This document shows, one piece after another, positions 10,000 to 26,110 of a stretch of 32,000 nucleotides of DNA. The notes below the pieces were generated by a model. It was not told where the DNA came from. It saw only the letters and a program-made list of their open reading frames with translations, and did no database searches. The stretch is from an uncultured Erysipelotrichaceae bacterium (GTDB taxonomy: Bacteria; Bacillota_I; Bacilli_A; Erysipelotrichales; Erysipelotrichaceae). The stretch lies in contig OW818668.1 of the NCBI GenBank assembly GCA_942493105.1, positions 1,860,001 through 1,892,000 on the forward strand, in the 5' to 3' direction. Positions within the stretch are counted from its first letter, which is position 1. Every line of letters starts with the position of its first letter. Position numbers and translations under genes: made by a program.

Positions 10000-10020
10000 A
10001 ACCTTTAAAAGGTTTTCTTC
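10000..10020 (+). terminator. Weak rho-independent terminator after the deacetylase-like gene
   Basis: aacctt-taa-aaggtt stem-loop followed by tttcttc. The stem is short and AT-rich. Confidence 0.35.
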
Positions 10021-10150
10021 AAAATAGACAGAGAAAAAGGTTTGTATAGCAACATCTTTTTAGACAATTTGCTAAGTTGGTTTTTAAAAAGTTAACAGTG
10101 AAATAGTCTCGAATATGTATTTTGGTCAATTTTTTGATGAATCAAAAATG

Positions 10151-10186
10151 AGAAAATAAAAAGCCTTGAATAAAGGCTTCTTTTGT
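10151..10186 (-). terminator. Rho-independent terminator (possibly bidirectional) immediately 3' of the tRNA fragment
   Basis: Stem aagcctt (10161-10167) pairs with aaggctt (10173-10179). On the minus strand it is followed by tttttattttct, on the plus strand by cttttgt. Confidence 0.55.
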
Positions 10187-10189
10187 AAC

Positions 10190-10206
10190 TGGTGCCCGGG
10201 GACGGA
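10190..10206 (-). other. tRNA 3'-end fragment (T-arm 3' side + acceptor 3' strand + discriminator + CCA); probable att-site remnant marking the island edge
   Basis: Plus strand is tggtgcccggggacgga, whose reverse complement is TCCGTCCCCGGGCACCA. That parses as ..TCCGT C / CCCGGGC / A / CCA. The match to tRNA architecture stops abruptly at 10207 (taataattt), and no D arm or anticodon arm follows. Confidence 0.6.
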
Positions 10207-10548
10207 TAATAATTTAATCGTTCTAAGATTGCATAAGACTGCATAACACTGTATTCTACAGCCTTATTTTACCATAGATGGCATAAGATTTAGCATGATT
10301 TCTTAAGAGCGTGCAAATAGCGTGCAAATGACATCTTGGGATTTTACAGGACACAAGTGGAAAAATAAATCTTAAATTCAATATTCAACCACTTCTGGCA
10401 ATTCCTAATTTGCTTCTGGCTTTTTGTTCCACTTTGATATTCTAAAAAAACTCTACTTTTCTCAACTCACCACCTAGGTTGTAAAATAATATTACTAGAA
10501 CCATTTTTCTTCTTACGTGTATAATTAAGTTAACTTACTGGGGGTAAT

Positions 10549-10968
10549 ATGGTAAAAATAGATGATAACTTGAACTCAGTTTTTGAATCTGTAGCCAAGA
10601 TAGGACAAAGTGTACAACAAAGTTTAAACAAGATGACGAAGGAAGCTAGTCAATATGTTATCGAACACCAAATTGGATTTACCCCCTCAACCCTGATGAT
10701 TAATCCTTATGAGAAATTGATGAGAATTGATATTCCTCCAAACCCACTTATAGCTTTGAATGAGGAATTTCTCATTGAAATAAAGCAGCTAAACTCATCT
10801 ATAGATATAATGAACAAGAAGATAATTGACCTTGAGAATAAAGCTAATGAAACTGAAAGGTCAAATATTAAACGTCAATGGATAATAGCGATAATTTCCA
10901 CTTTACTTGGAGCAATTACAGGTTCAGTTCTTACTATGTTCATTACCCTACTACTCACCCAGAATTAA
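10549..10968 (+). CDS. Hypothetical tail-anchored coiled-coil membrane protein
   Basis: 139-aa ORF with SD gggggt 4 nt upstream and a TATAAT at 10520-10525. It has a coiled-coil-like central part (IDIMNKKIIDLENKANETERSNIKRQ) and a C-terminal TM (WIIAIISTLLGAITGSVLTMFITLLL). I recognise no family. Confidence 0.6.
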   Translation: MVKIDDNLNSVFESVAKIGQSVQQSLNKMTKEASQYVIEHQIGFTPSTLMINPYEKLMRIDIPPNPLIALNEEFLIEIKQLNSSIDIMNKKIIDLENKANETERSNIKRQWIIAIISTLLGAITGSVLTMFITLLLTQN

Positions 10969-11013
10969 ATAGTATGTAGTTGAATGAATAAAAAAACAAG
11001 CGGAGGCAACGTT

Positions 11014-12105
11014 ATGAATAAAGCAACTAATAGAAAAATCAAGAAGTTACCATTTCGAGAAAGGGAAGGTTTAATCAAATTCCTTCCAGACATATTACAA
11101 CTCTTAGGATTTAGTTATGGTTTTTACCTTACATATAATCTTGATAATAAAATTGCTTCGATACTATGTGTATGTTATATATTGCTGTACCTATTTAGGA
11201 TTTTGGGTGTTGCTCAAAGTGATCAAATAAGAAAAGAAAATGAACTCAATACTAATATTGAAGAAACAGAAAAGAAAGACAGAATTGAGATAAGAACTAT
11301 ATGGAGTAATACATTAGTTAAAGTAGCTGAATTATCTGTAATTGCGTACATTATTCTGAATTTGGCTCGACACACTATTCCAATTATTTTTCATATCGGT
11401 TCTGTAGATGCATGGATTGGATTCTCTGGGTCCATTATTTCTGGAATAATTACAATGATGGCTTTATTATACACAATTATGCATGAGGCAAAGATTCGAG
11501 ATGAGGATAAGATACAGAAGAAGATTGAACTCGGATTACAGTTTATGCCAATCATCGAATTATCCTTTGAAAGTGATGGCCAGACAGGTTATGGTTTGAC
11601 ATCTCAAGGAGAACACGATGATGAAGTGGAAAGCTATGTTGCTCAGGCTTCAATAACACTTAATTTTAACAATACCTCTCCTTTTATTGCTCGAGCATTA
11701 TCGTTCACATCTTTCGATGTAGAACAACTTCATCAAAGCGGCTTTGAAGACGTGTTTGTTTACAATAGAAGTGATTTTCTATCAAAGAAATATAGTTTAA
11801 AAACTGAAGCTAATGAATGTATCCAAAACATAAAACTTATTCCAGGAAATGGTAAGAGTAGAACAACGATTACAATACCAATATATGAAGGAAAACTTGA
11901 TGGATTGTATATAAATTGCTTACTTGAGTATTTTGACTATAACAAAGCAATAAAGCATTCTGTTTTAGTCGAAGGCAATTTTTCTATAACATTTGAAGAA
12001 GTTACGCAATCACATGTTTATTTGGATAATGTAGATGTTCTTCAAGAGAAATCAAAGTTTATTAAACTCGAATACTATAGTGGATCATACTCATTTATTG
12101 ACTAG
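11014..12105 (+). CDS. Hypothetical 4-TM membrane protein with ~190-aa C-terminal soluble domain
   Basis: The track ORF starts at 10984, but the ATG at 11014 has GGAGG 7 nt upstream. There are four hydrophobic segments and then a beta-rich-looking C-terminal domain. The gene begins 46 nt after the previous stop, so it is a likely operon partner. I recognise no family. Confidence 0.6.
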   Translation: MNKATNRKIKKLPFREREGLIKFLPDILQLLGFSYGFYLTYNLDNKIASILCVCYILLYLFRILGVAQSDQIRKENELNTNIEETEKKDRIEIRTIWSNTLVKVAELSVIAYIILNLARHTIPIIFHIGSVDAWIGFSGSIISGIITMMALLYTIMHEAKIRDEDKIQKKIELGLQFMPIIELSFESDGQTGYGLTSQGEHDDEVESYVAQASITLNFNNTSPFIARALSFTSFDVEQLHQSGFEDVFVYNRSDFLSKKYSLKTEANECIQNIKLIPGNGKSRTTITIPIYEGKLDGLYINCLLEYFDYNKAIKHSVLVEGNFSITFEEVTQSHVYLDNVDVLQEKSKFIKLEYYSGSYSFID

Positions 12106-12515
12106 TTTTAAACGTATTTCGGGAATTAGTGTTATGACTTAAAGTTATTTCTTATCTATAAAAATAACTAATTAGCTTTTATTATTTAATTTCGAATTAC
12201 TGAATAAAAGATATCTATTAAAGATGGTTTAATCGGCCTTTTGGTACTGAGGTGTGCGACTTTATATTTTGACGTTCCTAAAACGATTTTCTTTGAAGTG
12301 AATTAGTTCGACTTTTTTAGAGTCACAATACTAAAGTTGAATGAATACAAATGGAGAACTAATCCAGTCACAACATTAATTATTAATTAACATGATAAAA
12401 CGAATATATCATGGCTAGGCGAAATATTAAATTAGAAACAAAGATAATGATAATTATTACCAATAGTTTCCAAAAGAAAAATGATCTATAAAAAATAAGG
12501 TTATGGTGAAACAAC

Positions 12516-14384
12516 TTAGAAATCGTCTTCTTTTGTAAGTTTCATTACATATGGTTTCTTTTTAAAATCTTCGATATCGATAACTTTCGGTAATAGACAA
12601 CATTCAGATACAGTGCAAACTCTCGGAATTTCATCATCAATCCACAAATCGGATTCCGAAGACCAAATATATTCAGTAAAAGGAGTTACCAAAATCGAAG
12701 TAATATAGTTAATGTTTTCATTGATAAAGAAGTTTCTACCTTTGTTGTGATTAAGTAACCATTTAACTTTATCTTCAACTTGATGAATACCTTCCAGATT
12801 CTTTTTTTGTCTATGCTGAAGAGTTGCTTTATTTCCCTCTATATATGTTATTGATTGGACATTAGCTTTCAATTCTGCAATAAACAAGATATCTCCAATA
12901 ATGAACGAAATATCAATTTCGCGTGAGGTGTTGTCATTTCCATAAAGTTTCTTTTTGTTTAACCACATTGGCACGCCAACTGTTTTTAATCTTTCTATAA
13001 CAACATCTTCAAACAAGTGACCCTTTTTGTCTTCGGTTGGCTTTAAAAAATGCATCATTGTCCTGAGAATAAAAATTACAGATGCATAATCAACATTTAT
13101 TCCATTGTCAACTGATGGAAAGATTAAGCATCTAGGTCCAATTGTATTTAGTGAAATATTGTTACGGTATGTTCTATTGTATGAGAGGTTCTTAAGTACA
13201 CTTAGTGCATCTTCCTTTGTTAATTTGTAGTCTGAAAGAGATGTAATTTTATCATGAGTTGAAATGAAGATCAAGTTATCAACAAGTTTATCAATGCTCG
13301 AAAATCTCCTGTATGCTCTTTTGAGCAATTCCCTCCCCACAGGTCGATCATCAGTTAAGCAGAAATAAACTTCACTTTGAATCAATGAATATAAAGTCTG
13401 TACGAATGCTTCAATTCTATATCCAAATGTTTTAAGAAACTCTTCACTATAAAATTCATTAGCCACGTAATAGTAGTCAAAGTTAAATGGTACCCATACG
13501 AAATTGTAGATTATCTCTTTATCACCATCATGCAAGAATCTACTTAGAAATAGTTGTTGTTGGGGATAATCGATTTCCGATATCTCATTACTATTATATT
13601 GCGGAACTAATGAAATGCCTTTATTGGCTTCAAGCAATTTGTGATTTAAAAGAACTCCACTCGAACTTGAGAAATCATCAAACTTTGTACCACGTTTATC
13701 ATAAATTCCAATTAACCTATCGGCTTCAGGATCGTTAAGTACAAAGTAACCAGTGCGATTGATGATAAGTTTTCCGCCTTTGTTCAAACGTCTATAACAT
13801 ACAGTTGTGTGCCAATACTCAAAGGCAAGTCTTTCAAGTTGATATATTTCAAGTGCGTCATTATAATCATATTTACCAAGGAAAATCCCTTCTTTTTTTT
13901 CATCAAACATTTTTTTGTTTGCCCCAGTATTAATTAGAGCTTTTTTGAAATGACCAGATGCAATTTCACTAGAGTTTATTAGATGCCCCGGCTTACTCAT
14001 TACTATCTCATTTCCGCAATTGATTTTTCCATATTTTAGAAATGCACATTCTAAAATGTTCCTATAAAGAATTAATGTTTGAGGATCCTCTCCAAAGGTT
14101 TCCTTTGGAGCAATTCTCCTATACAAATGAAACCAATAATAAATACCTTTTCTTGATATCATTTGACACATTTTGTCTTCTATCATATTCTGGATATCTC
14201 GAATCGCATTTACAGCATCGTCAAACTCAAGGGACTCCGAATCATCATATTTTCCAATAAATCTTCCTATAATTAGATTTGCTGGTCTATCTCTGTTTTT
14301 CTTTAAATTTCTTCTCAAGGACAAACCCATATATGAAAAAAGTACATTATGATAATCGAGTCCATAAATTGGTGTAGTTTTCAC
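12516..14384 (-). CDS. Large hypothetical protein with C-terminal NERD/PD-(D/E)xK nuclease-like motif
   Basis: 622-aa ORF with a GTG start. The C-terminal segment GHLFEDVVIERLKTVGV..(x)..SREIDISFIIGDILFIAELKANVQS fits the E...D...E-x-K layout of NERD/restriction-endonuclease-fold domains. The N-terminal ~450 aa has no motif I recognise and no Walker A. Confidence 0.65.
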   Translation of the reverse strand: MKTTPIYGLDYHNVLFSYMGLSLRRNLKKNRDRPANLIIGRFIGKYDDSESLEFDDAVNAIRDIQNMIEDKMCQMISRKGIYYWFHLYRRIAPKETFGEDPQTLILYRNILECAFLKYGKINCGNEIVMSKPGHLINSSEIASGHFKKALINTGANKKMFDEKKEGIFLGKYDYNDALEIYQLERLAFEYWHTTVCYRRLNKGGKLIINRTGYFVLNDPEADRLIGIYDKRGTKFDDFSSSSGVLLNHKLLEANKGISLVPQYNSNEISEIDYPQQQLFLSRFLHDGDKEIIYNFVWVPFNFDYYYVANEFYSEEFLKTFGYRIEAFVQTLYSLIQSEVYFCLTDDRPVGRELLKRAYRRFSSIDKLVDNLIFISTHDKITSLSDYKLTKEDALSVLKNLSYNRTYRNNISLNTIGPRCLIFPSVDNGINVDYASVIFILRTMMHFLKPTEDKKGHLFEDVVIERLKTVGVPMWLNKKKLYGNDNTSREIDISFIIGDILFIAELKANVQSITYIEGNKATLQHRQKKNLEGIHQVEDKVKWLLNHNKGRNFFINENINYITSILVTPFTEYIWSSESDLWIDDEIPRVCTVSECCLLPKVIDIEDFKKKPYVMKLTKEDDF

Positions 14385-14736
14385 GGTCGAACCATTTCCT
14401 TAGTGCAACTTTTCTTTCATTCCATAAACAAATATGGGTCCTATTCTAGTACTCTCATTTTCGCCTATCAAAACATGAATAAACCGCCCATCTATGCGGC
14501 TTTTTACTATATCCTTCTCATTACTTAAAATATTTGATGCCTGGGGACTGATGATGACTATTCCCGACATAAACACTCATAATGCCCATTAAAAGGCTTA
14601 AACGATGATATCTACACTTAAATTATACTAGATTTTCTTTAATTTTCATCCATTTCTAAAAATTCCAAGCAATTTCCAAGCAATTTTAAAATCCTAAGAA
14701 TTAACAGCGATTTAATATAATTTCGCCAGCAATGAC

Positions 14737-15501
14737 CTAGATACTTCTAGTTTTCGCTCTATCCAAAACAATACCATTCAAAACTGGAACGTATTCCTCA
14801 TTATTCATTGTCCAACAGATAATATCACTAAAAAAACTCAAACCCAATTTATTAATTGCGTCTGGGTTTATAAATGCAAAAGTATTTGTTCTATCATAAC
14901 GTTCGTGGAAGCTAGCTTTACTGTAAATTACCGCGGAAACAACATTATTCTTGAGACAATAAAAGAACTGTGAATTTATGGGTGCCCCGTTGTGTTTGAT
15001 GATTTCAGAATTATATATAAATTCAGACTTCACTTCATCATTATGTTCTATGTCATAATGCGTAACTTCATCACTTAGACCAATTAGTATTTCAAATAAT
15101 TCCATTCCATATTCTCGACCCCTGCTCTTGAATTGACCAACAAGCTCTCCTAGATGAATGAAGATAACATAAGGAAGATCTCTTTGCTTGGAATTCACTT
15201 TACTTCTGTTCTTAATAAATTGATCTACTTTATTATTCAATGAATTAGTTATTCGTGGTAGTATGTATGACCTTCTTGCATTTCCGTTAAAGTGACCAGA
15301 TCCGATAAATTTATCGTAACCTTCTATCAGTATATTTCCAAACGCCGGGCAAACACATTCAATATAGACCCCATCAGTTAGAAAATCTGGCCCATAATCA
15401 CTTTTATGATCCTCAGAAACGCTAATATCCCTCTTTAGTCCCAAAAAATAGTCAATACAATTAATTTCATGAGTTTTACTCCAATAATGATTCGATAGCA
15501 C
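14737..15501 (-). CDS. Hypothetical protein (start uncertain; frame open upstream to 15684)
   Basis: 254-aa ORF from a GTG with no SD. The same frame stays open for 61 more codons (..VVTKLDQNNLHFLKINFNQNIELIKTFPDYVFSSQERKFRLEVLKNLYTEACFTK) back to a strong SD (aaaggggga, rc of 15667-15675) and a TATAAT (rc of 15689-15694). A possible PD..E-x-x motif is present (DYGPDF..GVYIECV). I recognise no family. Confidence 0.55.
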   Translation of the reverse strand: MLSNHYWSKTHEINCIDYFLGLKRDISVSEDHKSDYGPDFLTDGVYIECVCPAFGNILIEGYDKFIGSGHFNGNARRSYILPRITNSLNNKVDQFIKNRSKVNSKQRDLPYVIFIHLGELVGQFKSRGREYGMELFEILIGLSDEVTHYDIEHNDEVKSEFIYNSEIIKHNGAPINSQFFYCLKNNVVSAVIYSKASFHERYDRTNTFAFINPDAINKLGLSFFSDIICWTMNNEEYVPVLNGIVLDRAKTRSI

Positions 15502-16102
15502 CTTTGTGAAACACGCTTCAGTATAAAGGTTTTTTAAAACCTCTAGCCGAAACTTCCGTTCTTGTGATGAAAAAACATAATCGGGGAATGTTTTAATTAA
15601 TTCAATATTCTGATTGAAATTGATCTTTAAAAAGTGCAGGTTATTCTGATCTAGTTTCGTAACAACTCCCCCTTTATGCCTTAACTACATTATACTATAA
15701 AAAAAACACTCTGAAGGATGGCTATGTTTCACTTGATGAGTCTTCGCAATGACCATATATTCAAAATATAGTATATTTTCACTAAAAATTTATAAATGCC
15801 GTTCCATCAAAAAGACGTGACAATTTCATGGATGAATATAGTATCAGAAATGTGAATCATTAAGACCTTGTTAATATCGGTAGTCTTCTGTGCGAATGGA
15901 ATGACGAGTAAAAAATCATTCCGCCAAATGGGGATGTCGAAAATTTATATTTGTTTTAGTAATAATCAAGTTATAATTAAATCAAATTAGGGGGGATAAA
16001 AAATGCAAAAATGCAATCAACAATTTAGACGGGTAGATAATCTATCAATACTTTAGTGTTTAGAATTACCAGACAAAGAACAAAACACTTTAAGGAGGAG
16101 AC

Positions 16103-16372
16103 ATGAAAAAATTGGTATTAGTTTTATGTGCATTTTTATTGGCAAGTTGTAGTGATGTAAAAAATAATCCAATAATTGAGAAACCAGTTGTTGAGAAACC
16201 AGTTGTTGAGAAACCAGTTGTTGAAACTGTAAGTCAAAGTAATGCTGTTCGTAAAGCAAAAGTCTATTTAGAAATTTCTGCATATTCAAGAAAAGGATTG
16301 ATTGCGCAATTGGAGTATGAAGGATTTACGAATGAACAGGCCATCCACGGTGTTGATTCTACTGGATTATAA
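16103..16372 (+). CDS. Lipoprotein with Ltp-like domain (phage superinfection-exclusion lipoprotein family)
   Basis: 89 aa with SD aaggagga. It has a signal peptide with a lipobox (LCAFLLASC), an (EKPVV)x3 linker and a C-terminal segment, AVRKAKVYLEISAYSRKGLIAQLEYEGFTNEQAIHGVD. That segment matches the 'host cell surface-exposed lipoprotein' Ltp repeat pattern. Confidence 0.7.
   Translation: MKKLVLVLCAFLLASCSDVKNNPIIEKPVVEKPVVEKPVVETVSQSNAVRKAKVYLEISAYSRKGLIAQLEYEGFTNEQAIHGVDSTGL
16178..16222 (+). repeat. Perfect 15-nt tandem repeat x3 (gagaaaccagttgtt) encoding EKPVV x3 in the lipoprotein linker
   Basis: Read directly. Units are 16178-16192, 16193-16207 and 16208-16222, followed by a partial fourth unit (gaaac). 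Confidence 0.95.
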
Positions 16373-16667
16373 TAATATATACATTTATATACAAACTATT
16401 TTACGCTCTCCCCAATTAGCCGATATTGATCATTACTGTTAGATAATTAATTGAACTCGAAATCTACAACGAGGAACTATTTCAATTTATCATTTGTGCA
16501 TATACTCAAGATGAACAGATTCTAGGTTTAAATACTCCGTTTATTTAAAAATAGACATCAAAAATAACCGGAACAATACTAGATAATTGGTTCCCCGTAC
16601 ATAAAAATGTATAAATATGCTAGTATTTCTTATATCAAAAGAATTTCTTCAAAGGGGGATAAAATGA

Positions 16668-19352
16668 ATGTCACTATCGTGGAATGAAATACAGGATAAT
16701 GCCATTGTCTTTTCGAAACGATGGTCAACTGCAAGTGATGAAAAATCTGAAGCACAATCATTTCTCAATGAATTATTCTCTGTTTTTGGAGTAGACAGAA
16801 AAAGAGTTGGAACATTTGAATATAATACACATCCTAATGACAAAAGTCATTTCATTGACTGTTTTTGGCCAGGTAGAATTATTATTGAAATGAAAAGCAA
16901 AGGAAAATCACTCGATAGGGCATACTCGCAAGCAAAACAATATGCATTTGAGATTAAATCAGATGAGGATTTACCACAATTTATTATGGTTTGTGATTTC
17001 GATCGAATTCACATTTACAACTTGATAACAAACCAAAACTGGGAATTTCAAGTTAAGGATTTGAAAAAGAACGTGAAGAAACTCTCAATTCTCACTGATC
17101 AAGCAACAAAATATAACTTTTTTGTTGATCAAGAGTTGAATACTAAGGCCGCATACAAAATGGCTTTATTGCATGATGAGTTAAAAAGAAACAAATACGT
17201 CGGCCATGACTTGGAAGTCTACCTTGTAAGACTTCTATTCTGTTTATTTGCTGATGATTCTGGCATATTCCCGCACAATTCATTTTACGATTATATCAGT
17301 AAGACTCAGAGCAACGGATCTGATTTGTCTGGAAGATTAGCTGTATTCTTTCAAACTCTAAATACAGACTATGAGTACAGACAATCATCGCTTAGCGATG
17401 AACTAAAGAACTTCCCTTACGTTAACGGAGGACTATTTAGCAAACCGTTGACTTTGCCTGCATTTAGTTCAAAAACAAGAGATATCCTACTTGAGTGTTC
17501 ATCCTTCGATTGGTCCAAAATTTCGCCATCTATTTTTGGCTCTATGTTTCAAGGTGTACTTGATGAAACTCAAAGAAGATCATTAGGTGCTCATTACACA
17601 AGCGAGCAAAATATCCTAAAAGTTATAAAGCCATTATTTCTAGACAATCTTTATCTTGAGTTCGAAAAAGTAAAACATAACATAAAATCTCTAGATGCTT
17701 TTCACCAGAAACTCGGCAAGTTGACTTTTTTCGATCCTGCTTGTGGTTGTGGTAATTTTCTCATCATCGCATATCGAGAATTAAGAATACTAGAGCTTGA
17801 AGTACTAAAAATGAAAATTAACGATAATCAAATGGGTTTCATCGAAATGTGGCAAGATAACATTATTGTTAATGTAGATCAATTTTTCGGCATAGAGTCA
17901 GAAGATTTCCCATGTGAAATTGCCAAAGTTGGAATGTGGCTAATGGACCATCTAATGAATAATATCATCTCCGATTACTATGGTCTTCCATTTTCTAGAT
18001 TACCATTAAAGAAAGGAGCAACTATAATTCACGGAAATGCTTTAAGACTTGATTGGGACAATTCCTTTAATAACATCAAGTTTGATTTTATCATTGGAAA
18101 TCCTCCATTTATTGGAAAAAAATATCAGAATTCTGATCAGAAGAATGATATGAGAATGGTTTTCGGAACAGATTTCTTAGGTGTTGGAAATCTAGATTAT
18201 GTATCTGCTTGGTATAAAAAAACAACTGAATACATGAACAAATTAACAAAAGCAGCCTTCGTATCAACTAATAGTATTGTTCAAGGCGAACAAGTACCAT
18301 ATTTGTGGAAACCGTTATTCAATGAAGGAATTCACTTTGATTTCTGCTATAGAACATTTGAGTGGAAAAATGATGCTAAACTTAACGCCGCAGTACATTG
18401 TGTGATTATAGGATTCTCTAAAAGTGAAAATGTAACTGAAAAATATATTTTTGATGATGTAAATATCAAAATAGTCGAGAACATTAACCCTTATCTAAAT
18501 GATGGGCCCACTGTATTTCTTGAGAATCGATCAAATCCAATATCAAAAGTTAATAAACTAGTTTACGGGAGTTTTGCGCTTGATAATGGAAATTATACTA
18601 TTTCTGAAGACGAATTCACTGAGTTCATAAATAAGGAGCCATATTCACAAGATTTTCTACGACTCTTTATTGGATCAGAGGAGTTCATCAATAACAAAAA
18701 AAGATTCTGTATCTGGTTGAAAGATGCCGATATTGATATTATCCAAAAATGCCCAACTATTATTGATAGAATTAGGAAAGTAAAGGAATGGAGATTAAAA
18801 AGTAATAGAAAGGAAACCAGGTCTGCTGCTGATTTTCCAAGTTTATTCGCAGAAATTCGGCAACCAAAAACAGATTATTTAGCTATTCCAATAACTAGTT
18901 CAGAGCGCCGAAAATATATCCCAATAGGATATCTAAGGGCTAATGTAATTGCCAGTAACCACTTACTAGTATTACCAAATGCATCATTATACGATTTTGC
19001 AATACTTACTTCAGCCATGCATATGGCTTGGGTTAAAACTGTAGCTGGTCGGTTGAAAAGTGATTATAACTATTCAGCAAGAATCGTGTATAATAATTTC
19101 CCGTGGCCTAATTCTAGTAAAGAGCAAATAGATGCAATTTCGTTACTTGGTGAGAGTATTTTACGAGTTCGAGCAAGTTTTACAAACAAGACTCTAGCAG
19201 CATTATATGACCCGTTATTTATGCCTGAAATTTTAATGCAGGCACATTTAAAACTAGACCGTGCGGTTGATAAACTATATGGTAAGACTTTTGAAAGTGA
19301 TGAATCTCGGGCTTCGTATCTTATGATGCTTTATGACAAGTTGATCAAATAG
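16668..19352 (+). CDS. MmeI-family type IIL restriction-modification enzyme (fused endonuclease, N6-adenine methyltransferase and specificity domain)
   Basis: 894 aa. The N-terminus MSLSWNEIQDNAIVFSKRW..SDEKSEAQSFLNELFSVFG is very close to the MmeI N-terminus as I recall it. The nuclease motif D-x9-E-x-K is present (FIDCFWPGRIIIEMK). Methyltransferase motif I is FFDPACGCGNFLI and motif IV is IIGNPPFIG. A long C-terminal TRD follows. Confidence 0.9.
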   Translation: MSLSWNEIQDNAIVFSKRWSTASDEKSEAQSFLNELFSVFGVDRKRVGTFEYNTHPNDKSHFIDCFWPGRIIIEMKSKGKSLDRAYSQAKQYAFEIKSDEDLPQFIMVCDFDRIHIYNLITNQNWEFQVKDLKKNVKKLSILTDQATKYNFFVDQELNTKAAYKMALLHDELKRNKYVGHDLEVYLVRLLFCLFADDSGIFPHNSFYDYISKTQSNGSDLSGRLAVFFQTLNTDYEYRQSSLSDELKNFPYVNGGLFSKPLTLPAFSSKTRDILLECSSFDWSKISPSIFGSMFQGVLDETQRRSLGAHYTSEQNILKVIKPLFLDNLYLEFEKVKHNIKSLDAFHQKLGKLTFFDPACGCGNFLIIAYRELRILELEVLKMKINDNQMGFIEMWQDNIIVNVDQFFGIESEDFPCEIAKVGMWLMDHLMNNIISDYYGLPFSRLPLKKGATIIHGNALRLDWDNSFNNIKFDFIIGNPPFIGKKYQNSDQKNDMRMVFGTDFLGVGNLDYVSAWYKKTTEYMNKLTKAAFVSTNSIVQGEQVPYLWKPLFNEGIHFDFCYRTFEWKNDAKLNAAVHCVIIGFSKSENVTEKYIFDDVNIKIVENINPYLNDGPTVFLENRSNPISKVNKLVYGSFALDNGNYTISEDEFTEFINKEPYSQDFLRLFIGSEEFINNKKRFCIWLKDADIDIIQKCPTIIDRIRKVKEWRLKSNRKETRSAADFPSLFAEIRQPKTDYLAIPITSSERRKYIPIGYLRANVIASNHLLVLPNASLYDFAILTSAMHMAWVKTVAGRLKSDYNYSARIVYNNFPWPNSSKEQIDAISLLGESILRVRASFTNKTLAALYDPLFMPEILMQAHLKLDRAVDKLYGKTFESDESRASYLMMLYDKLIK

Positions 19353-19542
19353 CAAGGTTTTAATTAGAACAAATTTCAATGATCTATTAGGAAAATATAC
19401 GAAACTCTATAAATCAATTCCTTAATGCTTATTAAAGTTCGTAATATCTTTGAGTTTTGGTAATGAAAGATAGTATTTCTTTTTTGAACATATGATTTCA
19501 ACGAAACTAACTCGTAGTAAAATGAATAAATCAACTAAAGAT

Positions 19543-19567
19543 GTCCTTATACAGTTAGGACTTTTTT
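19543..19567 (+). terminator. Rho-independent terminator downstream of the MmeI-like gene
   Basis: gtcct (19543-19547) pairs with aggac (19557-19561), followed by tttttt. The stem is only 5 bp. Confidence 0.4.
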
Positions 19568-19683
19568 CATAGTTATATAAGAATATAATAGTTTATCATC
19601 AAAATATTCTAACTTTTTTTGTAAATGAGATCTAAGTTAATAAATTAACAGCATCTGAAATTTGAGTTTTTTCTGTTTTAATT

Positions 19684-19899
19684 TCAGATTTTGAAATCAT
19701 CATCAACATACTCTATTATATCCCCCGGTTGTACATTCAGATATTTACATAGTTTATCAATTACCTCAAGACTTACCATATCATTACTTGAGAACTTAGC
19801 AATTGTATTAAAAGCTAAGTTCAATTCTGTTCTTAAACTTGATTTGTTAATTCCACGTCTATTAAGTGTATCAAGTAATTTATAGTATTTGATTGCCAT
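19684..19899 (-). CDS. XRE/Cro-CI family small HTH transcriptional regulator
   Basis: 71 aa with SD AAGGAGGG. The sequence is typical of a small XRE protein (KLLDTLNRRGINKSSLRTELNLAFNTIAKFSSNDMVSLEVIDKLCKYLNVQPGDIIEY). It is divergent from the zinc-ribbon nuclease operon. Confidence 0.85.
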   Translation of the reverse strand: MAIKYYKLLDTLNRRGINKSSLRTELNLAFNTIAKFSSNDMVSLEVIDKLCKYLNVQPGDIIEYVDDDFKI

Positions 19900-19942
19900 A
19901 ATATTCCCTCCTTAATTCATTATACTTCAAATCTATCGAAAA

Positions 19943-20031
19943 CTATAGAAATTATTGTTGACAATAAAGAAAATCTAGTGTAATCTATATTTATAGAGAG
20001 ATATTCTATACAATGTTATAGATATTCTATA
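19943..20031. promoter_or_regulatory. Divergent promoter region with a dense array of TATAGA/TCTATA half-sites (candidate XRE operators)
   Basis: TTGACA lies at 19958-19963, then a 17-nt spacer ending in tg, then taatct at 19981-19986. Half-sites: tataga 19944-19949, tctata 19983-19988, tataga 19992-19997, tctata 20005-20010, tataga 20017-20022, tctata 20026-20031. Two pairs form palindromes, tataga-N7-tctata and tataga-tat-tctata. Confidence 0.5.
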
Positions 20032-20043
20032 AAAGGAGGGTTT

Positions 20044-21543
20044 ATGACCCAATCACTTAAGGGAATGAGTTTCAAGGTTTGGTGTATTGAGAATCATAAG
20101 GATGAATTGCTTAGTCAGTGGCATCCTACAAAGAATGTAAGGTTGTCTCCGGATTCGATTACTTTCGGTAGTAATAAGAAAGCTTGGTGGGTGTGTTCAA
20201 AGGGACATGAGTGGGAAGCTACCATCTCCTCTCGTACCACGAATCAGCGTGGCTGCCCGTATTGCAAGGGAGTAAAAGTCATCGTCGGAGAAACCGATCT
20301 AGCCACTACTCATCCTACCCTTGCTTTAGAATGGCATCCGACTAAAAATTCGCTGACTCCTAAAGAACTCTCCGCCGGAAGCAACAAGAAAGTTTATTGG
20401 CTGTGTCCTAACGGCCACACCTACCTCAGTTCCCCATCCATAAGGTTACAGCCTTGTGGATGCTCGGTTTGTGCCAGGAAGATTGTAGAGGTAGGGGTCA
20501 ACGATCTGTTGTCTAGAAGCCCTGAGATCGCCTCAGAATGGCATCCGTCTCGTAACGGAGATTTGAAGCCTGAGATGGTGATGTTTCAAAGCAATAAGAA
20601 AGTTTGGTGGCTTTGTAAGAACGGCCATGAGTGGGAAGCTTCTCCAAACTCTAGACAAAAGAATGGATGTCCTATCTGTTACGGAAACACCCACTTCTCA
20701 CTTCGCGAGAAAACTGTCTTCTATTACGTCAAGAAACACTTTCACAACGCCATCAGCAGTTATCAGTTCAAGAGCGATCGTAAGCTTGAGATCGACATCT
20801 TTATTCCGGGGCTCAACATCGGAATTGAATACGATGGAACCTATTACCATCAGGATCCCTTAAAGGACCAACTCAAGGAAACGCTTATTACTGAAGAAGG
20901 CATTCAGCTCATCCGGATCAGAGAACCGAAAACGCCTGAAGTCAAAGACAACAGCACCGTGATCCAGCTCTTCGACCTTAGTGTCGAAGACCTCACACGA
21001 GCCATTAGAGAGCTTTTGGCGCTGCTTGAGAATCTATCTCATACTTCTCTAAGAAACGTCGAAGTCGTCATCAAAGACGATCTAAAGGACATCTATGCCA
21101 TGATGGATGATACGATCATCGAAGGATCGATCGCAGCCAAGAATCCGGCCGTTGCTTACGAGTGGCATCCTACCAAGAACCTGCCTCTAACCCCGGAAAA
21201 GGTCTACGCCAACTCTAAGATGATCGTGTGGTGGTTGTGTCCATTAGGGCATGAATACCAATCCAACGTCAATAACCGAAACAATGGAAAACGTTGCCCC
21301 TTCTGTTACGGGACTCACAGTTTGTTAGTTGGGGAAAACGATCTTCTTTCTCAAAGACCGAAACTGGCCGCTCAGTGGCACCCCACAAAGAACCTTCCTT
21401 TGATGCCGGATCAGATCCGCGCCTACAGTTCAAAGAAGGCTTGGTGGCTATGTGAGCACGGTGAAGAATGGGAATCGAAGATCAGTTCACGAGGCGATAC
21501 TTGCCGATGCAAAAACAAAGCCAATTTTTTTGGAAAATTTTAG
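20044..21543 (+). CDS. Protein with five treble-clef zinc-ribbon repeats (DUF4379-like) flanking a Vsr/DUF559-like PD-(D/E)xK endonuclease core
   Basis: 499 aa with SD aaaggaggg. Five repeats follow the pattern WHP(T/S)(K/R)N..P......S.KK.WW.C..GHEW......R....GCP.C, at aa 22-75, 93-144, 162-213, 370-422 and 441-489. The central aa ~217-295, REKTVFYYVKKHF..KLEIDIFIPGLNIGIEYDGTYYHQ..EEGIQLIRIRE, fits the E..D..IE.DG..H..R layout of Vsr-like/DUF559 nucleases. Confidence 0.75.
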   Translation: MTQSLKGMSFKVWCIENHKDELLSQWHPTKNVRLSPDSITFGSNKKAWWVCSKGHEWEATISSRTTNQRGCPYCKGVKVIVGETDLATTHPTLALEWHPTKNSLTPKELSAGSNKKVYWLCPNGHTYLSSPSIRLQPCGCSVCARKIVEVGVNDLLSRSPEIASEWHPSRNGDLKPEMVMFQSNKKVWWLCKNGHEWEASPNSRQKNGCPICYGNTHFSLREKTVFYYVKKHFHNAISSYQFKSDRKLEIDIFIPGLNIGIEYDGTYYHQDPLKDQLKETLITEEGIQLIRIREPKTPEVKDNSTVIQLFDLSVEDLTRAIRELLALLENLSHTSLRNVEVVIKDDLKDIYAMMDDTIIEGSIAAKNPAVAYEWHPTKNLPLTPEKVYANSKMIVWWLCPLGHEYQSNVNNRNNGKRCPFCYGTHSLLVGENDLLSQRPKLAAQWHPTKNLPLMPDQIRAYSSKKAWWLCEHGEEWESKISSRGDTCRCKNKANFFGKF

Positions 21544-21586: not shown

Positions 21587-21835
21587 ATGGGTCAACTAAA
21601 TATTGAAGTCACCTTTATAGAAGGTCCAAATAAGGGTCAAGTCTGGATTCACAATAATCTTTCTCTACCCGATATCTTCGAGTTTTACGAAAGCCGTACC
21701 CTTAGATTTATAAAAGAAACAGATGCTTTTGTATTCGATGAAAGTCACAGGATAGAACTCAGCGAATTCATGTATACCGTTATCAAGAAGATTGATCCTT
21801 TTATTGAAACGGTATCCGATCCTCACAAGCACTAA
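21587..21835 (+). CDS. Hypothetical small protein, co-oriented with the zinc-ribbon nuclease gene
   Basis: 82 aa with SD ggagg 7 nt upstream, starting 43 nt after the previous stop. A terminator follows. I recognise no family. Confidence 0.55.
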   Translation: MGQLNIEVTFIEGPNKGQVWIHNNLSLPDIFEFYESRTLRFIKETDAFVFDESHRIELSEFMYTVIKKIDPFIETVSDPHKH

Positions 21836-21900
21836 ATCAGATTATAGTTCCGTCTTATTCCCATTGTGAATATCCATCCATTATCCAAGTCTCAATAAAT

Positions 21901-21931
21901 GTCCCATCGTAATAATGGGGCTTTTCCTTTT
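21901..21931 (+). terminator. Rho-independent terminator of the zinc-ribbon nuclease / 82-aa operon
   Basis: gtcccat (21901-21907) pairs with atggggc (21915-21921), followed by ttttcctttt. Confidence 0.6.
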
Positions 21932-22065
21932 GACAATAAAACACTGGCTTTCAAGAACGAACAATAATGACTGTCTTATCTAAATGGGTTGATTTAATCC
22001 TTTTGGAATGAGTGTAAATAGTTATTACTGACATTTTCTAAAAAAACTGAATTAAATTTTAGAGT

Positions 22066-22150
22066 TTGCGAAGTGGATTATACCGCTTAAAATAAGGGAA
22101 TAATCAAAATCATAAATTCAAAACTCAATGGGACCATTTGGACCCGTAAA
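22066..22150. repeat. Cassette copy A (conserved flanks + hairpin GGGACC-attt-GGACCC)
   Basis: gtggattataccgcttaaaataagggaataatcaaaatcataaattcaaaactcaatGGGACCatttGGACCCgtaaa. It aligns with copies B and C. Relative to them it lacks about 25 nt between gtggat and tataccgc. Confidence 0.8.
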
Positions 22151-22211
22151 CCAACTAAAATAATTATTTTGTATAGTGCGTAAATTTGCATTGTCCCGTT
22201 ACTCAGTAATT

Positions 22212-22247
22212 ACGGGAACCAAAGGTCCCCGTCAGCTTTTTGCTTTT
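22212..22247 (+). terminator. Hairpin ACGGGAACC-aaa-GGTCCCCGT + T-rich tail (terminator-like), copy 1
   Basis: Read directly, followed by cagctttttgcttttg. The identical 25-nt string ttacgggaaccaaaggtccccgtcag recurs at 24060-24084. No plus-strand gene lies upstream, so it may end a small RNA. Confidence 0.4.
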
Positions 22248-23115
22248 GAAAATCAGAAATTCCTTTATTTATAAGGGTTTTTTCAATGTCACTTCTCTCA
22301 AAAATCATTTCAAAAAAAAGATATATTACTTCGAATTAGAACACAAAAAGACGTTATGCAAGTGAAATCTTTTCAAAATAGGTCGATTTATTACTCAAAT
22401 GTGAAAGTAACTCTTATATAGCAATACCAATTGAAACATGGGTTTGACTTTCAGACGTAATTATCACTACCAAGATCAATTAAAAGGTTAATTTTCGGCA
22501 TTTTTACACCTTGATCGATTGGAATTGGGACTTTTTCCCCAACCTAGCCTCCTGGAATACACTATATATAGGGTACTCTACTTTTGAGGTAAAAGTCACC
22601 GATCAAAATTTGAAAAGTTGATTATACGTCTATTTTACTGAAGATTTTCAATGTCTACATGTTGTACCCATAGTTTTTTGCTTTTCTGTTTTTATGGGTA
22701 CAGCTTTTTACTTAGTCTAAATGTTCAGAAAAGCCTTTATTATAACCGTATTAACTACTTTTCGGCTTGCCGAAAATGTTCAAAAAGCGTGGGTTGTACC
22801 CAACGCCTTATCCTGCTTACTAATTTCCAAAAAATATTGATTATCGTATTTCTTGGAAAAACTCATTTTCTGCAGATTTTGATGAGTATTTGGATCTTTC
22901 CCAAAACAATCATAAATATCCTGTTTCATTAGTGAAAACTTATTGAGAACTTGTAACTTGCCAATTCCATTATCACAACTTTTACTCTGAGTATTTAGAT
23001 ACTATAAACGAATATCTCTTGTGCCTTCTATGTCGAAATGTGATATAGAACCTATCCACTGTTGAATACATACATCCACCCTCTGAAGACACTCAAATAA
23101 ATCAAACATACTCAT

Positions 23116-23228
23116 AAAAGTGAACGTGAGTTCATGGGTTTTCAAATTGGGTTATAGGCTTAGAATAAAGAGATAATCGAAATTAAACATGCAAAACTTA
23201 GCGGGAACAGAGTGTTCCCGTAAATGAC
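23116..23228. repeat. Cassette copy B (more diverged; hairpin CGGGAACA-gag-TGTTCCCG)
   Basis: aaaagtgaacgtgagttcatgggttttcaaattgggttataggcttagaataaagagataatcgaaattaaacatgcaaaacttagCGGGAACAgagTGTTCCCGtaaatg. The hairpin lies 45 nt past the stop of the minus-strand HTH gene. Confidence 0.7.
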
Positions 23229-23264
23229 TAAATATCGGTAAATCACTTGGTATAAATTATGCTT

Positions 23265-23690
23265 TTAGACTATGTTAATGAAACCATCAAGAATCTTTAC
23301 TTCACTTTTCTCAATCCCAAGATATGCAGCTTTTAAACTAGTGTTCATTAGGTGGTACTCAGAGTATTTGGTGATTTCACCCGCTTCATCACGCTCAATC
23401 TTTTCTATGCATTTCAGCAAAGTGACATAAAGTCCTCTATCTGCCAAATTCGAATAATTCAATCTGTACACACCACGGCTTATTTTCGCTATGCATGGAT
23501 CATTCAAACTTAGTCTGGTATATAGTTGGCTAATTAAGCTTTGGGAGCATTTCAACTCTCTCGCAACTTCAGTTTGAGACATCATTATGGCTCCATTTTT
23601 ATCAGTGTTTTTCTTTAGTAAATCAACAAGCGCTTGAGAAGTTTCTCTGCTTTTATATAGTTCTCTTTTATAGATGGGTAAATTGATCAT
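23265..23690 (-). CDS. Hypothetical HTH/winged-helix DNA-binding protein
   Basis: 141 aa with SD agaggtg. The probable HTH is MSQTEVARELKCSQSLISQLYTRL. It is the only convincing ORF between 21.84 and 24.6 kb and lies between cassette copies B and C. Confidence 0.6.
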   Translation of the reverse strand: MINLPIYKRELYKSRETSQALVDLLKKNTDKNGAIMMSQTEVARELKCSQSLISQLYTRLSLNDPCIAKISRGVYRLNYSNLADRGLYVTLLKCIEKIERDEAGEITKYSEYHLMNTSLKAAYLGIEKSEVKILDGFINIV

Positions 23691-23869
23691 TGTGTCACCT
23701 CTTATTCTTCATCCATTATATATACTCCTTAGGAGTTTATCAGTGAAACCTTAATCGATCTATATAATCAGAGTACTAACTAATTACCGTTCTTGGAAAT
23801 GATGCAATCATTCTGTATAGATTCCAGAAAAGTAGAGATAAATCATTATCGAAACAGTCTAACATTTTG

Positions 23870-23980
23870 AAAAGTGGATAGAGAATCTGTGTAGTCGAAT
23901 TTGCATTATACCGCTTAAAATAAGGAAATTATCAATATTGAATACTCAAAAACTCAGCGGGTTGGATCCAACCCGTAATT
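23870..23980. repeat. Cassette copy C (hairpin CGGGTTGG-ATCC-AACCCG, perfect palindrome)
   Basis: gaaaagtggatagagaatctgtgtagtcgaatttgcattataccgcttaaaataaggaaattatcaatattgaatactcaaaaactcagCGGGTTGGATCCAACCCGtaattt. Confidence 0.8.
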
Positions 23981-24061
23981 TCATTTATATCGAGGATTTA
24001 TCTCAATGTTTACTTTATCATGTTAATCAATCGTTAAAAACTGTCGATATTTACTGTATTT

Positions 24062-24090
24062 ACGGGAACCAAAGGTCCCCGTCAGGTTTT
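24062..24090 (+). terminator. Hairpin ACGGGAACC-aaa-GGTCCCCGT, copy 2 (weaker T tail)
   Basis: The hairpin is identical to the one at 22212-22232. It is followed by caggttttcgag. Confidence 0.3.
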
Positions 24091-24287
24091 CGAGCTCCGA
24101 TGTTTAAAATACACTTAAAAACAAAGGGAATTATTAATATTCATATCTGTAATTTTGTTTTCATATTTTATTTGTATTTATTTTCAAACGCAATTTTGTA
24201 GGATCAATTCAACTTATCAGAACATCAACACAATTTCTACACAGGTTTTTAATATAGTGATGATGTCGAAAGACAAGGAGGTTATCA

Positions 24288-24383
24288 ATGCTTGGTTTAG
24301 CACTAGCAAATTGCATTCATTCCTGTGGGCTTCACGGGCAAGAATTAGATGCTTGTATTCAGATGATGATCAAAGGATTCTAA
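24288..24383 (+). CDS. Possible 31-aa Cys-containing small peptide (MLGLALANCIHSCGLHGQELDACIQMMIKGF)
   Basis: Below the ORF-track size cutoff. A consensus SD, aaggagg, lies at 24275-24281, 6 nt before the ATG at 24288. I recognise no family. Confidence 0.25.
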   Translation: MLGLALANCIHSCGLHGQELDACIQMMIKGF

Positions 24384-24662
24384 CAAACTTACTGCTTCGA
24401 ATTTTGGTGTAATTTAATTTCTTCATCCCTTTTCCCCCTTAAATGGTCCTTGAATTAACACAACCAAGCTTATTGACTAACTACGAAAAAGAGTTTATGC
24501 AGGATAAACTCTTTTTCATATTTGAAAGGAATCACTAACATTCTTAATCAATAAAAAAGCTAGGATTTGATTGCAGTAGTAAAGTAAAAGTAGACATTAA
24601 GAAAAGACAAGTTCTTTGATTAAAGTCTACTTTTTTCATATTCTATAAACAGGAGGAGACGT

Positions 24663-24779
24663 ATGGGAAGAAATAAAGGCGGAACAAACAGAAGATATAG
24701 TGTGGAAGACAAATTAGAGATTATAAAGCGGTATATAGATCAACATGAATCTCAAAGTGATCTGTGGATGAGAGCGTAA
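24663..24779 (+). pseudogene. Truncated IS3-family OrfA-like (HTH transposase) N-terminal stub
   Basis: SD aggagg lies at 24652-24657. The product is MGRNKGGTNRRYSVEDKLEIIKRYIDQHESQSDLWMRA*. The N-terminal 33 aa look like an IS3/IS150 OrfA. The reading frame ends where the IS256-like element begins. Confidence 0.5.
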
Positions 24780-26110
24780 AATGGTATGTGGGAATTCGAA
24801 ATTAATTAAAATAAAGGGACATATCTACTAGGATAAAGTTACGACACTAACCCAAGGAGAGTTGCCCATGTCCAATTCTACCTTAGATTTATTCAAATTA
24901 CTATCCTCGCCAGAGGAATTACGGGAGTCAATTCGCCAGATGGTTCAAGCAGCGATGAATGATCTGATGAAAGTAGAGTTGGATTCTGTCTTGGGTTATC
25001 AGAAATACAGCCGTAAAACTGAAGGCAGTGATAACTGCCGAAACGGAAGTTATCAGCGCACTTTCGATACTGAATATGGGTCTGTCGAACTGAACGTCCC
25101 CAGAGATCGAAAGAATGAATTCAATACTGCTCTGTTTGATGCTTACCAACGACGCAGTCATTGGTTGGAAGACATGGTGATCGCACTCTATCAGACAGGA
25201 TCTACGACCTCTGAGATCTGTGAGCTGATTGAGAAGTTGTATGGCCACCACTACACTAAGTAGACCATCAGTAATATTACCGAAGCGACTCAGGAGCTGG
25301 TGGAGCGCTTCAATCAGAGAGCGCTCAAGACGCGTTATAGTATCCTGTATATCGATGCCATCTTTACGAAGATTCGCCGTTCTACGGTCTCTAGTGAGGC
25401 GGTATACCTGGTTTTAGGTATTGATGAGGAAGGAAAACGAGAGATTTTGAGTTATTGTATAACGTCTCACGAATCCAGTGAGATCTGGAAGGATGTCTTT
25501 GAAGATCTCAGGAACCGAGGTGTGAAAGAAGTCTTACTGGGCGTCGTGGATGGATTGAAGGGATTAGATGAATCCTTCCTGAGTTATATCCCGAAGGCAG
25601 ATATCCAGCGTTGCACGGTTCACTTTATGCGTAATATCTGTAAGCGCGTTAGAGTTCAGGATCGTCTTGAGGTGGCCACAAATCTGAAAGAAATCTTCGC
25701 CAGTCATTCTGAAGCTCAAGCCTTAGAACGCTGTGAAGCGATGAAACGGAAGTGGAAGAAAGTCTATCCAAAGTTATTCGAAGATTACCTCAACCGGTCA
25801 AATATGTTTACTTACTTCAAGTATCCAAAGATGATTTGGGGATCAATCCGAACTACCAACAAGTTGAAAACACGAATAAGCAGCTGAAGCGTCAAATTAA
25901 GAAGAAGGAACAGTTTCCTAACGAAGGCTCCGCTGAATGCTTTCTGGTCAACTTATTTACGATCCAAAATGAGAAGCTGTCTGGTAGAATCATGAAGGGA
26001 TTTGAATTGGCTTACCCACGATTATCTGAAATGTTTGAAGAAAGAAGTGATTATTCTGGAAGTTCCCTATGAAAAAACACAACTTTCTTTACACTCCCAT
26101 TTGCACACTT
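24780..26110 (+). mobile_element. IS256-family insertion sequence, inactivated (boundaries approximate)
   Basis: It contains the Mutator/IS256-type transposase reading frames. The candidate imperfect terminal inverted repeats are gtaaaatggtatgtg (left, ~24775-24790) and acactcccatttgcac (right, ~26091-26106). They match only partially, so the ends are uncertain. Confidence 0.55.
24868..26072 (+). pseudogene. IS256-family (Mutator-type) transposase pseudogene: one in-frame TAG and one frameshift
   Basis: The three track ORFs 24862-25263, 25300-25887 and 25752-26072 join into one transposase (..NGSYQRTFDTEYGSVELNVPRDRKNEF.. / ..YSILYIDAIFTKIR..VYLVLGIDEEGKREIL.. / ..VENTNKQLKRQIKKKEQFPNEGSA..). 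The first two are in the same frame, separated by TAG at 25261-25263. The third needs a 1-nt shift near 25860 (IRTTN|QVENTN). Confidence 0.85.

Follow-up and report, generated by a model that had tools for sequence, protein, structure and literature searches.

The DNA analysed here, referred to as the window, is a stretch of 32,000 nucleotides (nt) from an uncultured Erysipelotrichaceae bacterium (GenBank assembly GCA_942493105.1, contig OW818668.1, positions 1,860,001 to 1,892,000). Two open reading frames (ORFs) of its reverse strand, designated ORF A and ORF B, had been regarded in an earlier note as a pair forming a nuclease defence module, and both were found where that note had placed them (12516-14384 and 14737-15501, minus strand). 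The region is best explained as two independent single-gene nuclease loci in a decaying defence island of low guanine-cytosine content (GC). Sequence and structure prediction taken together somewhat favour ORF A as a solitary sensor-nuclease of this island. From the proposed module, the part concerning ORF A as a stand-alone nuclease candidate for defence was retained on account of its motif, its fold and its genomic company in Bacillota, but the pairing with ORF B was abandoned because of the co-occurrence data.

12516-14384, minus strand: ORF A, 622 amino acids (aa), GTG start, TAA stop
14385-14736, minus strand: spacer between ORF B and ORF A, 352 nt
14737-15660, minus strand: ORF B, 307-codon frame, PD-T7-5-like PD-(D/E)xK protein, intact except for its start codon

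The nuclease domain of ORF A

ORF A belongs to a rare family of uniform architecture, with members of ~610-660 aa. A search of 5.8 billion proteins revealed 27 clusters of relatives, all of them full length and of about 590-650 aa. The conservation of individual residues was counted in 74 distinct full-length relatives from many phyla, showing 21-60% identity to the window protein. The protein was divided into two parts, with the following features.

12519-13049, minus strand: NERD/Card1-like PD-(D/E)xK nuclease domain, residues 446-622 of ORF A
12867-13010, minus strand: catalytic motif span, E459 to K506 (codons verified)
13010-13008, 12914-12912, 12875-12873 and 12869-12867, minus strand: catalytic codons of E459, D491, E504 and K506, respectively
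12674-12672, minus strand: codon of the invariant E571
13050-14384, minus strand: N-terminal region, residues 1-445, mixed alpha/beta, proposed sensor/nucleic-acid-binding part

The motif string FEDVV...EIDISFIIGDILFIAELK, on which the nuclease assignment had originally been based, is real and corresponds to residues 458-506, but it does not lie at the end of the protein as had been stated, since 116 residues come after it. The E / D / E-x-K arrangement read from this string was conserved in 70-74 of the 74 relatives. D491 was present in all of them (74/74), E459 in 73/74, Glu or Asp at position 504 in 73/74 and Lys or Arg at position 506 in 70/74, with E571 being invariant as well (74/74).

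The AlphaFold2 (AF2) model of ORF A had a pLDDT (predicted local distance difference test) score of 89.7 and a predicted template modelling (pTM) score of 0.89. In the nuclease domain, where pLDDT was ~90, the helix 451-468, strands 473-481, 487-496 and 499-505, helix 519-544 and strand 560-567 were predicted. This is the alpha-beta-beta-beta-alpha-beta core order around the motif, with the catalytic residues placed on the expected elements.

At the level of the family, the Pfam NERD model (PF08378) matched 19 of the 27 relatives at E <= 0.1 (best 2.5e-6), one distant member reached 22.6 bits and three had a precomputed PF08378 match. The other Pfam models detected among the 27 relatives were DUF4143 (10/27) and Card1_endonuc (4/27). 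The family profile confronted with PDB sequences found the Can2 nuclease motif (E 0.012), and the top Foldseek matches of the ORF A model were Can2, the R2 endonuclease domain, VC1899 and McrC, all of which are PD-(D/E)xK nucleases. These data support a predicted nuclease fold of the corresponding type, on which a conserved PD-(D/E)xK / NERD-type catalytic motif is located. ORF A may be a nuclease acting on DNA or RNA, and it may play an anti-phage role.

The N-terminal region of ORF A

The first ~450 aa of ORF A had been described as lacking ATPase, methyltransferase and helicase motifs. In agreement with this, no match and none of these domains were detected for residues 1-445 in Pfam, NCBIfam or PADLOC, no similar fold was found by Foldseek in PDB or BFVD, and no PADLOC v2 model matched ORF A at E <= 1. 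The region is nevertheless strongly conserved. W84, R89, R90, R198, K202 and D229 were invariant in 74/74 relatives, and H86, R108, E112, K117, G243 and D432 were near-invariant. Residues 1-445 appear to form a novel, strongly conserved binding or sensing module, for which the sensing role is a prediction.

Three short metagenomic matches (L078, L080 and L082) resembled truncated remnants rather than fusions to other effectors, and alternative N-terminal architectures for the ORF A family were rejected on this ground.

Distribution and genomic company of the ORF A family

A pattern scan detected the ORF A family in only 12 of 185,579 species genomes, the 12 loci belonging to Bacillota, Verrucomicrobia, Mesorhizobium, Sphingomonas, Colwellia, Latescibacter and Acidobacteria. 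A total of 57 further metagenomic loci was found in the same way. Such extreme patchiness (27 clusters of relatives and 12 of 185,579 genomes) argues against a housekeeping role. No relatives were present in IMG/VR or among GenBank phages, and the sole plasmid relative was identified in Persicobacter (26% identity). A viral or plasmid origin was rejected for both ORF A and ORF B after searches of GenBank phages and a plasmid collection and, for ORF A, of IMG/VR. Literature searches revealed no description of the ORF A family.

All-against-all BLAST comparison of the neighbouring genes showed that the ORF A family is solitary, with no neighbour conserved among the homologue loci. Among the loci of the Bacillota relatives, known defence genes or mobile elements were located nearby in about 8 of 10 non-redundant loci. 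In the window, an MmeI-type IIG enzyme lies close to ORF A. In Halalkalibacillus sediminis (L005 1-17881), a Tn7-like element with TnsA, TnsB, TniB and two TniQ/TnsD genes carries the homologue as its first cargo gene. Genes for a 1206-aa type IIG enzyme and for DUF5677 and HNH proteins come next, and a glmS-like gene lies at the opposite end. Other Bacillota loci of this kind comprised one with a type III restriction-modification (R-M) system and Mrr, one with Eco57I and HsdM fragments together with BovA of the Borvo system (E 7e-130), one with PD-T7-4 (E 8e-84), one with an Mrr-like gene and one with a Mob_Pre/ParB/TnpV element carrying an integrase.

The closest homologue of ORF A, with 61% identity (L023 319-2172) and likewise counted among the Bacillota loci, overlaps by 4 nt the end of a McrC-like gene (2-322), the product of which resembles McrC sequences in PDB (E 1.8e-8). 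This arrangement suggests that the homologue is co-transcribed with a McrBC system in its contig.

ORF B and its start codon

In the case of ORF B, the analysis concerned mainly the translation start and the conserved core.

15658-15675, minus strand: translation start region, with the Shine-Dalgarno sequence AAAGGGGGAG at 15675-15666, 5 nt, then ACG at 15660-15658
15229-15471, minus strand: conserved core codons (verified), H64-E65 at 15471-15466, D92 at 15387-15385, E101 at 15360-15358 and K144 at 15231-15229

ORF B had been given a length of 254 aa or more. Counted from the first GTG (15501), it indeed encodes 254 aa (14737-15501, minus strand) and its frame stays open up to 15684, but the true reading comprises 307 codons and begins with ACG at 15660. 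This ACG aligns with the Met of 50 homologues and is preceded by a strong Shine-Dalgarno sequence. The GTG at 15501, the first canonical start, has no Shine-Dalgarno sequence, and its use would drop 53 conserved residues. The 307-codon reading confronted by phmmer with 1.84 billion representatives revealed 106 relatives of ~290-310 aa, with alignments whose first query residues (~6-30) lie upstream of the GTG. The 254-aa query gave no match in the word-indexed protein database. The only self-match of ORF B was the source gene call P0029, a C-terminal fragment of 122 aa, and no more than this fragment was annotated because the start codon of ORF B reads ACG.

ORF B has probably lost its start codon by a one-base change from ATG to ACG, and this change would leave the gene silent or barely translated in this strain. 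A PD-T7-5-like gene was thus missed by standard gene calling through a single-base start change, and ORF B reminds us that recently inactivated systems are found in defence islands.

The motif GPDF..YIECV proposed for ORF B proved to be real. E65, D92, E101 and K144 were invariant in the 50 homologues, and H64 is part of the invariant or near-invariant core. In the AF2 model (pLDDT 94.3), the helix 57-74, strands 79-81, 93-95 and 98-103, helix 126-152 and strand 164-169 were predicted. The order of these elements is compatible with the PD-(D/E)xK alpha-beta-beta-beta-alpha-beta core, in which the Lys would be located on the following helix.

The PADLOC models for PD-T7-5 and PD-T7-1 (PDLC04110 and PDLC04073, respectively) were used to place the family. 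The PD-T7-5 model matched 39 of 50 relatives of ORF B (best 4e-12) over profile positions ~44/72-240 of 346, and the PD-T7-1 model matched six of 50. No relatives were found among GenBank phages or in the plasmid collection. On this sequence evidence, ORF B is classed as a separate protein that is remotely related to PD-T7-5, a single-gene defence protein, and not as a full-length member of that family. The gene of its closest relative, P0030, begins 28 nt after the genes for an N6_N4 methyltransferase and a 733-aa DEAD/ResIII helicase (L026 3024-7897; L028 133-3998). In some lineages, the ORF B family may therefore constitute the separate-gene nuclease of a type III-like R-M system.

Relation between ORF A and ORF B

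According to the original proposal, ORF B and ORF A would make up one two-gene defence system, being co-transcribed or acting together. In the window, the two genes lie side by side in the same orientation, and a nuclease-type motif is present in each. However, hmmsearch with the ORF B family profile gave no matches in about 80 loci with an ORF A homologue, and the genes located upstream of several ORF A homologues were related neither to ORF B nor to each other. As the ORF B family was absent from these loci and no neighbour of ORF A was conserved, the two-gene module was rejected. The closest relative of ORF B trails the methyltransferase and helicase genes instead, the spacer between the two ORFs contains its own promoter-like box and ORF B lacks a canonical start codon. 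The chance that the two genes form a single system was considered close to negligible. The profiles of the two families are also unrelated, with a probability of 0.85% in hhalign of the family alignments, and a shared origin of the two nucleases was rejected for this reason.

In the residue and structure comparisons suggested for both proteins, neither of the outcomes named as refuting was seen for ORF A. The D/E/K residues were kept among relatives in the case of ORF A as well as ORF B, and a nuclease fold was predicted for ORF A with weak nuclease matches in Foldseek, but for ORF B Foldseek gave no significant nuclease match.

The spacer and the duplicated 23-nt box

The spacer of 352 nt with a TATAAT-like box was present as had been claimed. 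It includes a weak 58-aa ORF (14400-14576) with no family match. No Rfam match was found for the spacer, and its RNA fold was no better than that of shuffled sequences (z-score 0.11), on which grounds a regulatory RNA at this position was rejected. The TATAAT sequence is contained in a longer box, occurring twice in the window.

14619-14641, minus strand: 23-nt box TAAAGAAAATCTAGTATAATTTA, including TATAAT at 14627-14622
19965-19987, plus strand: near-identical copy of the box, upstream of the 499-aa zinc-finger/Vsr-like gene

The consensus of the two copies is TAAAGAAAATCTAGT[A/G]TAAT[T/C]TA, with a -10-like hexamer. Two matches were found in the window, with 0 expected in 100 shuffles. The number of promoter-like sites in the region showed no excess, as 22 were found against 23.7 expected in shuffled sequence. 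Promoter statistics were rejected as an argument on this basis, and only the duplicated 23-nt box stands out. The box is likely to be the promoter or operator of ORF A, and its duplication suggests that ORF A and the 499-aa gene share a promoter or operator.

An HTH_26 gene (19684-19899) is located beside the second copy of the box. The 499-aa protein (20044-21543, plus strand) contains five DUF4379 treble-clef zinc-finger repeats, which are mirrored by DNA repeats inside its gene. The GC of this gene is 0.46, within an island of 0.32. Members of its cluster bear the JGI (Joint Genome Institute) name 'very-short-patch-repair endonuclease'.

The low-GC island and neighbouring genes

Both ORFs are located in a low-GC island, which they share with a complete R-M enzyme encoded on the opposite strand.

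~10000-19950: low-GC island, GC 0.32 versus 0.39 in the left flank
16668-19352, plus strand: MmeI-type type IIG R-M enzyme, 894 aa, on the strand opposite to ORF A and ORF B, in the same low-GC island

No methyltransferase gene is adjacent to ORF A in the window, and none was found as a conserved partner elsewhere. The MmeI-type enzyme is complete and self-contained, with all five MmeI domains present in one 894-aa protein that matches the type IIG model over its full length. A split N6_N4 methyltransferase is located 13 kb from ORF A. The earlier note had argued on the same lines against a classical type II R-M system, and this argument holds.

Further to the right, a Mutator/IS256-family transposase is broken into at least two ORFs (24862-26072, plus strand) and the N6_N4 DNA methyltransferase is broken into two ORFs (27923-28672, minus strand). 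The split transposase and the split methyltransferase give further evidence of gene decay in this variable region, with which the loss of the ORF B start fits.

Several other features were noticed in the window. A small lipoprotein with an Ltp domain is encoded between ORF B and the MmeI-type gene (16103-16372, plus strand). Its product matched the Pfam 'Host cell surface-exposed lipoprotein' model (E 1.3e-10), and its gene contains three tandem copies of a 15-nt repeat, translated into three copies of EKPVV. At the left edge of the island, two adjacent genes, separated by 15 nt (10549-10968 and 10984-12105, plus strand), encode predicted membrane/coiled-coil proteins of 139 and 373 aa. Neither of these proteins had a significant match in Pfam, NCBIfam or PADLOC, and the pair may represent another uncharacterised module. 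The region 21600-24800 (3.2 kb) is nearly devoid of ORFs. A 50-nt direct repeat occurs there three times (22074, 23147 and 23902), in each case near a GC-rich repeat of 33-35 nt (22206, 24056 and, in inverted orientation, 23193).

Interpretation of ORF A and alternative explanations

As the ORF A gene is solitary and its Bacillota relatives keep company with defence genes and mobile elements, a stand-alone sensor-nuclease gene for defence is its best reading. If this is so, the C-terminal NERD/Card1-type domain (E459, D491, E504-x-K506 and E571) would be responsible for metal-dependent cleavage of nucleic acid, and the N-terminal region with its basic/aromatic cluster (W84, H86, R89, R90, R108, K117, R198 and K202) would recognise the target or license the cleavage. 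Since there is no host-protecting methyltransferase, the discrimination between self and non-self would have to lie in what the N-terminal region binds. The candidate targets could be nucleic acids that are modified or unusual, intermediates of replication or structure, or factors from phages. A further-reaching proposal is put forward tentatively, namely that ORF A founds an undescribed, phylum-spanning family of single-gene immune proteins, in which a new fold of ~445 aa would sense a viral nucleic-acid feature or ligand through a W/H/R/K pocket and gate the NERD-type nuclease. If true, the N-terminal fold would be a new recognition module and the protein would not be merely another nuclease.

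Several observations weigh against this interpretation of the two genes as defence nucleases. The association of ORF A with defence is qualitative and concerns the Bacillota clade. The distant members from Proteobacteria, Acidobacteria and Verrucomicrobia were located among housekeeping genes (GcpE, TilS/FtsH, xanthine dehydrogenase and beta-lactamase), so the association is shown for the Bacillota clade only. No recognisable modified-DNA reader domain was detected in ORF A using Pfam, NCBIfam, PADLOC and Foldseek. With 17.5 bits (E 0.006), ORF A itself stayed under the gathering cut-off of the Pfam NERD model (22.1 bits), and this score together with the matches at the family level makes ORF A a divergent NERD relative rather than a formal member. 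All Foldseek matches of ORF A were weak (best E 0.009, whole-chain template modelling (TM) score <= 0.23), so the fold assignment rests on the motif, the topology and the hidden Markov model matches. For ORF B, no significant nuclease match was obtained with Foldseek (best E 0.62), and the match of the window protein to the PADLOC PD-T7-5 model was marginal (E 0.003, 14.7 bits).

The catalytic core of ORF A could also be read as that of a ZwsA-like (Zowangsin) effector with RNA as its target. ZwsA, a solitary NERD effector, cleaves viral RNA and not DNA, with PP7 and MS2 RNA as its substrates in vitro (bioRxiv 10.64898/2026.04.06.716636), and the 32/13/2 spacing of catalytic residues is common to ZwsA and ORF A. 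The same spacing is, however, present in Can2 and thus marks the NERD/Card1 clade, not one family. Moreover, the VHS, DUF647 and S4 domains were detected in 0/36 ORF A family members (27 + 9; Pfam scan, E <= 0.1-1) and the scan of 185,579 species genomes gave no Pseudomonas locus. Bacillota are also not known to have single-stranded RNA (ssRNA) phages, which was counted against this explanation, and an RNA-targeting effector of this type was considered rather unlikely. The nearest relatives of the nuclease domain by sequence and fold, Can2, Card1 and VC1899, point to another explanation, in which ORF A would be a signal-activated effector nuclease with an N-terminal region binding a nucleotide second messenger produced by a system that is encoded elsewhere. 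The invariant Arg/Lys cluster of this region could suit a phosphate-rich ligand. Nevertheless, none of the known sensor folds, CARF and SAVED included, was recognised in ORF A, and no type III CRISPR, CBASS (cyclic oligonucleotide-based antiphage signalling system) or cyclase gene was present beside any homologue examined. The likeness to Can2 is limited to the nuclease core (TM <= 0.23), and a CARF/Can2-like architecture was rejected because only this core aligned. An effector activated in this way appears very unlikely.

Finally, ORF A could play a non-immune role, either as a nuclease of DNA repair or recombination or as a mobile-element nuclease engaged in maintenance or in the exclusion of rival elements. 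The location of the distant members among housekeeping genes, the several Bacillota copies carried as mobile-element cargo (the Tn7-like and Mob_Pre/ParB elements) and the Persicobacter plasmid copy would be in line with such a role. This explanation, to which a low probability was assigned, is opposed by the extremely patchy phyletic distribution, by the absence of conserved partners from repair or replication and by the repeated location of the family immediately beside genes of R-M systems, McrC, Mrr, Borvo and PD-T7-4.

Comparison with known systems

Among known proteins, the closest functional analogue of the proposed ORF A sensor-nuclease is ZwsA of P. aeruginosa, a solitary NERD effector of 716 aa with the catalytic residues E535, D567, E580 and K582, reported to act as an RNA endonuclease against ssRNA phages, with a VHS, DUF647 and S4 annotation that is partly structure-based (bioRxiv 10.64898/2026.04.06.716636). 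The two proteins, compared by description only, are both solitary and combine uncharacterised N-terminal domains with a following NERD-type E...D...E-x-K motif, but ZwsA is ~95 aa longer and its VHS, DUF647 and S4 domains were seen in no ORF A family member. The best match of the catalytic core was provided by Can2, Card1 and VC1899 (PDB 7bdv, 8q44 and 1xmx), which share with ORF A the GxxFE ... E-x-D ... E-x-K pattern and the same topology. In these proteins, which work with type III CRISPR, an N-terminal CARF domain binds cyclic oligoadenylate, whereas ORF A has another N-terminal region of ~445 aa, no CARF domain and no CRISPR neighbours.

The nuclease domain of ORF A belongs to the same superfamily as those of the Nhi-like and Mokosh type I systems (PMC10952713; Pfam PF08378). 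In Nhi and Mokosh, NERD is coupled to helicase/ATPase modules, whereas no nucleoside triphosphatase domain is present in ORF A. The type IV enzymes, such as Mrr and MspJI, are single polypeptides with N-terminal recognition and a C-terminal PD-(D/E)xK domain, and act without a methyltransferase. They are similar to ORF A in layout and occur in the same islands, but ORF A has no detectable winged helix, SRA or YTH reader; it could still be a type IV-like enzyme with a novel N-terminal reader. Upx (PMC13099982) is also a PD-(D/E)xK defence system made up of one protein. Its accessory domains are large and novel, and it had no structural homologues at the time it was solved. It differs from ORF A in its length (1272 aa), in the presence of two nuclease domains and in its AbiU-related lineage.

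For ORF B, the relevant systems are PD-T7-5 and PD-T7-1, experimentally selected as single-gene defence systems of E. coli (Vassallo et al. 2022, PMC9519451) and listed as PD-(D/E)xK nucleases (PMC10952713). PD-T7-5 is given in both papers as a validated system of this type. ORF B shares with PD-T7-5 the E/D/E/K core region and is solitary in the window, but the relationship is remote, as the last ~100 profile positions were unmatched and ORF B has ACG in place of ATG.

With moderate confidence, ORF A can be placed among the single-protein PD-(D/E)xK defence candidates with a novel accessory region, which would not be surprising to a specialist. How foreign and host nucleic acid are told apart was raised as a question for orphan DNase-like systems (Vassallo et al. 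2022, PMC9519451). The ORF A family, with its uniform architecture and confident model, offers a clean case for studying non-self recognition by nucleases devoid of a methyltransferase, and its invariant N-terminal residues, kept across phyla, are ready targets for mutagenesis. Were the family confirmed, the defence repertoire would gain a new sensor fold, and annotation tools a new family.

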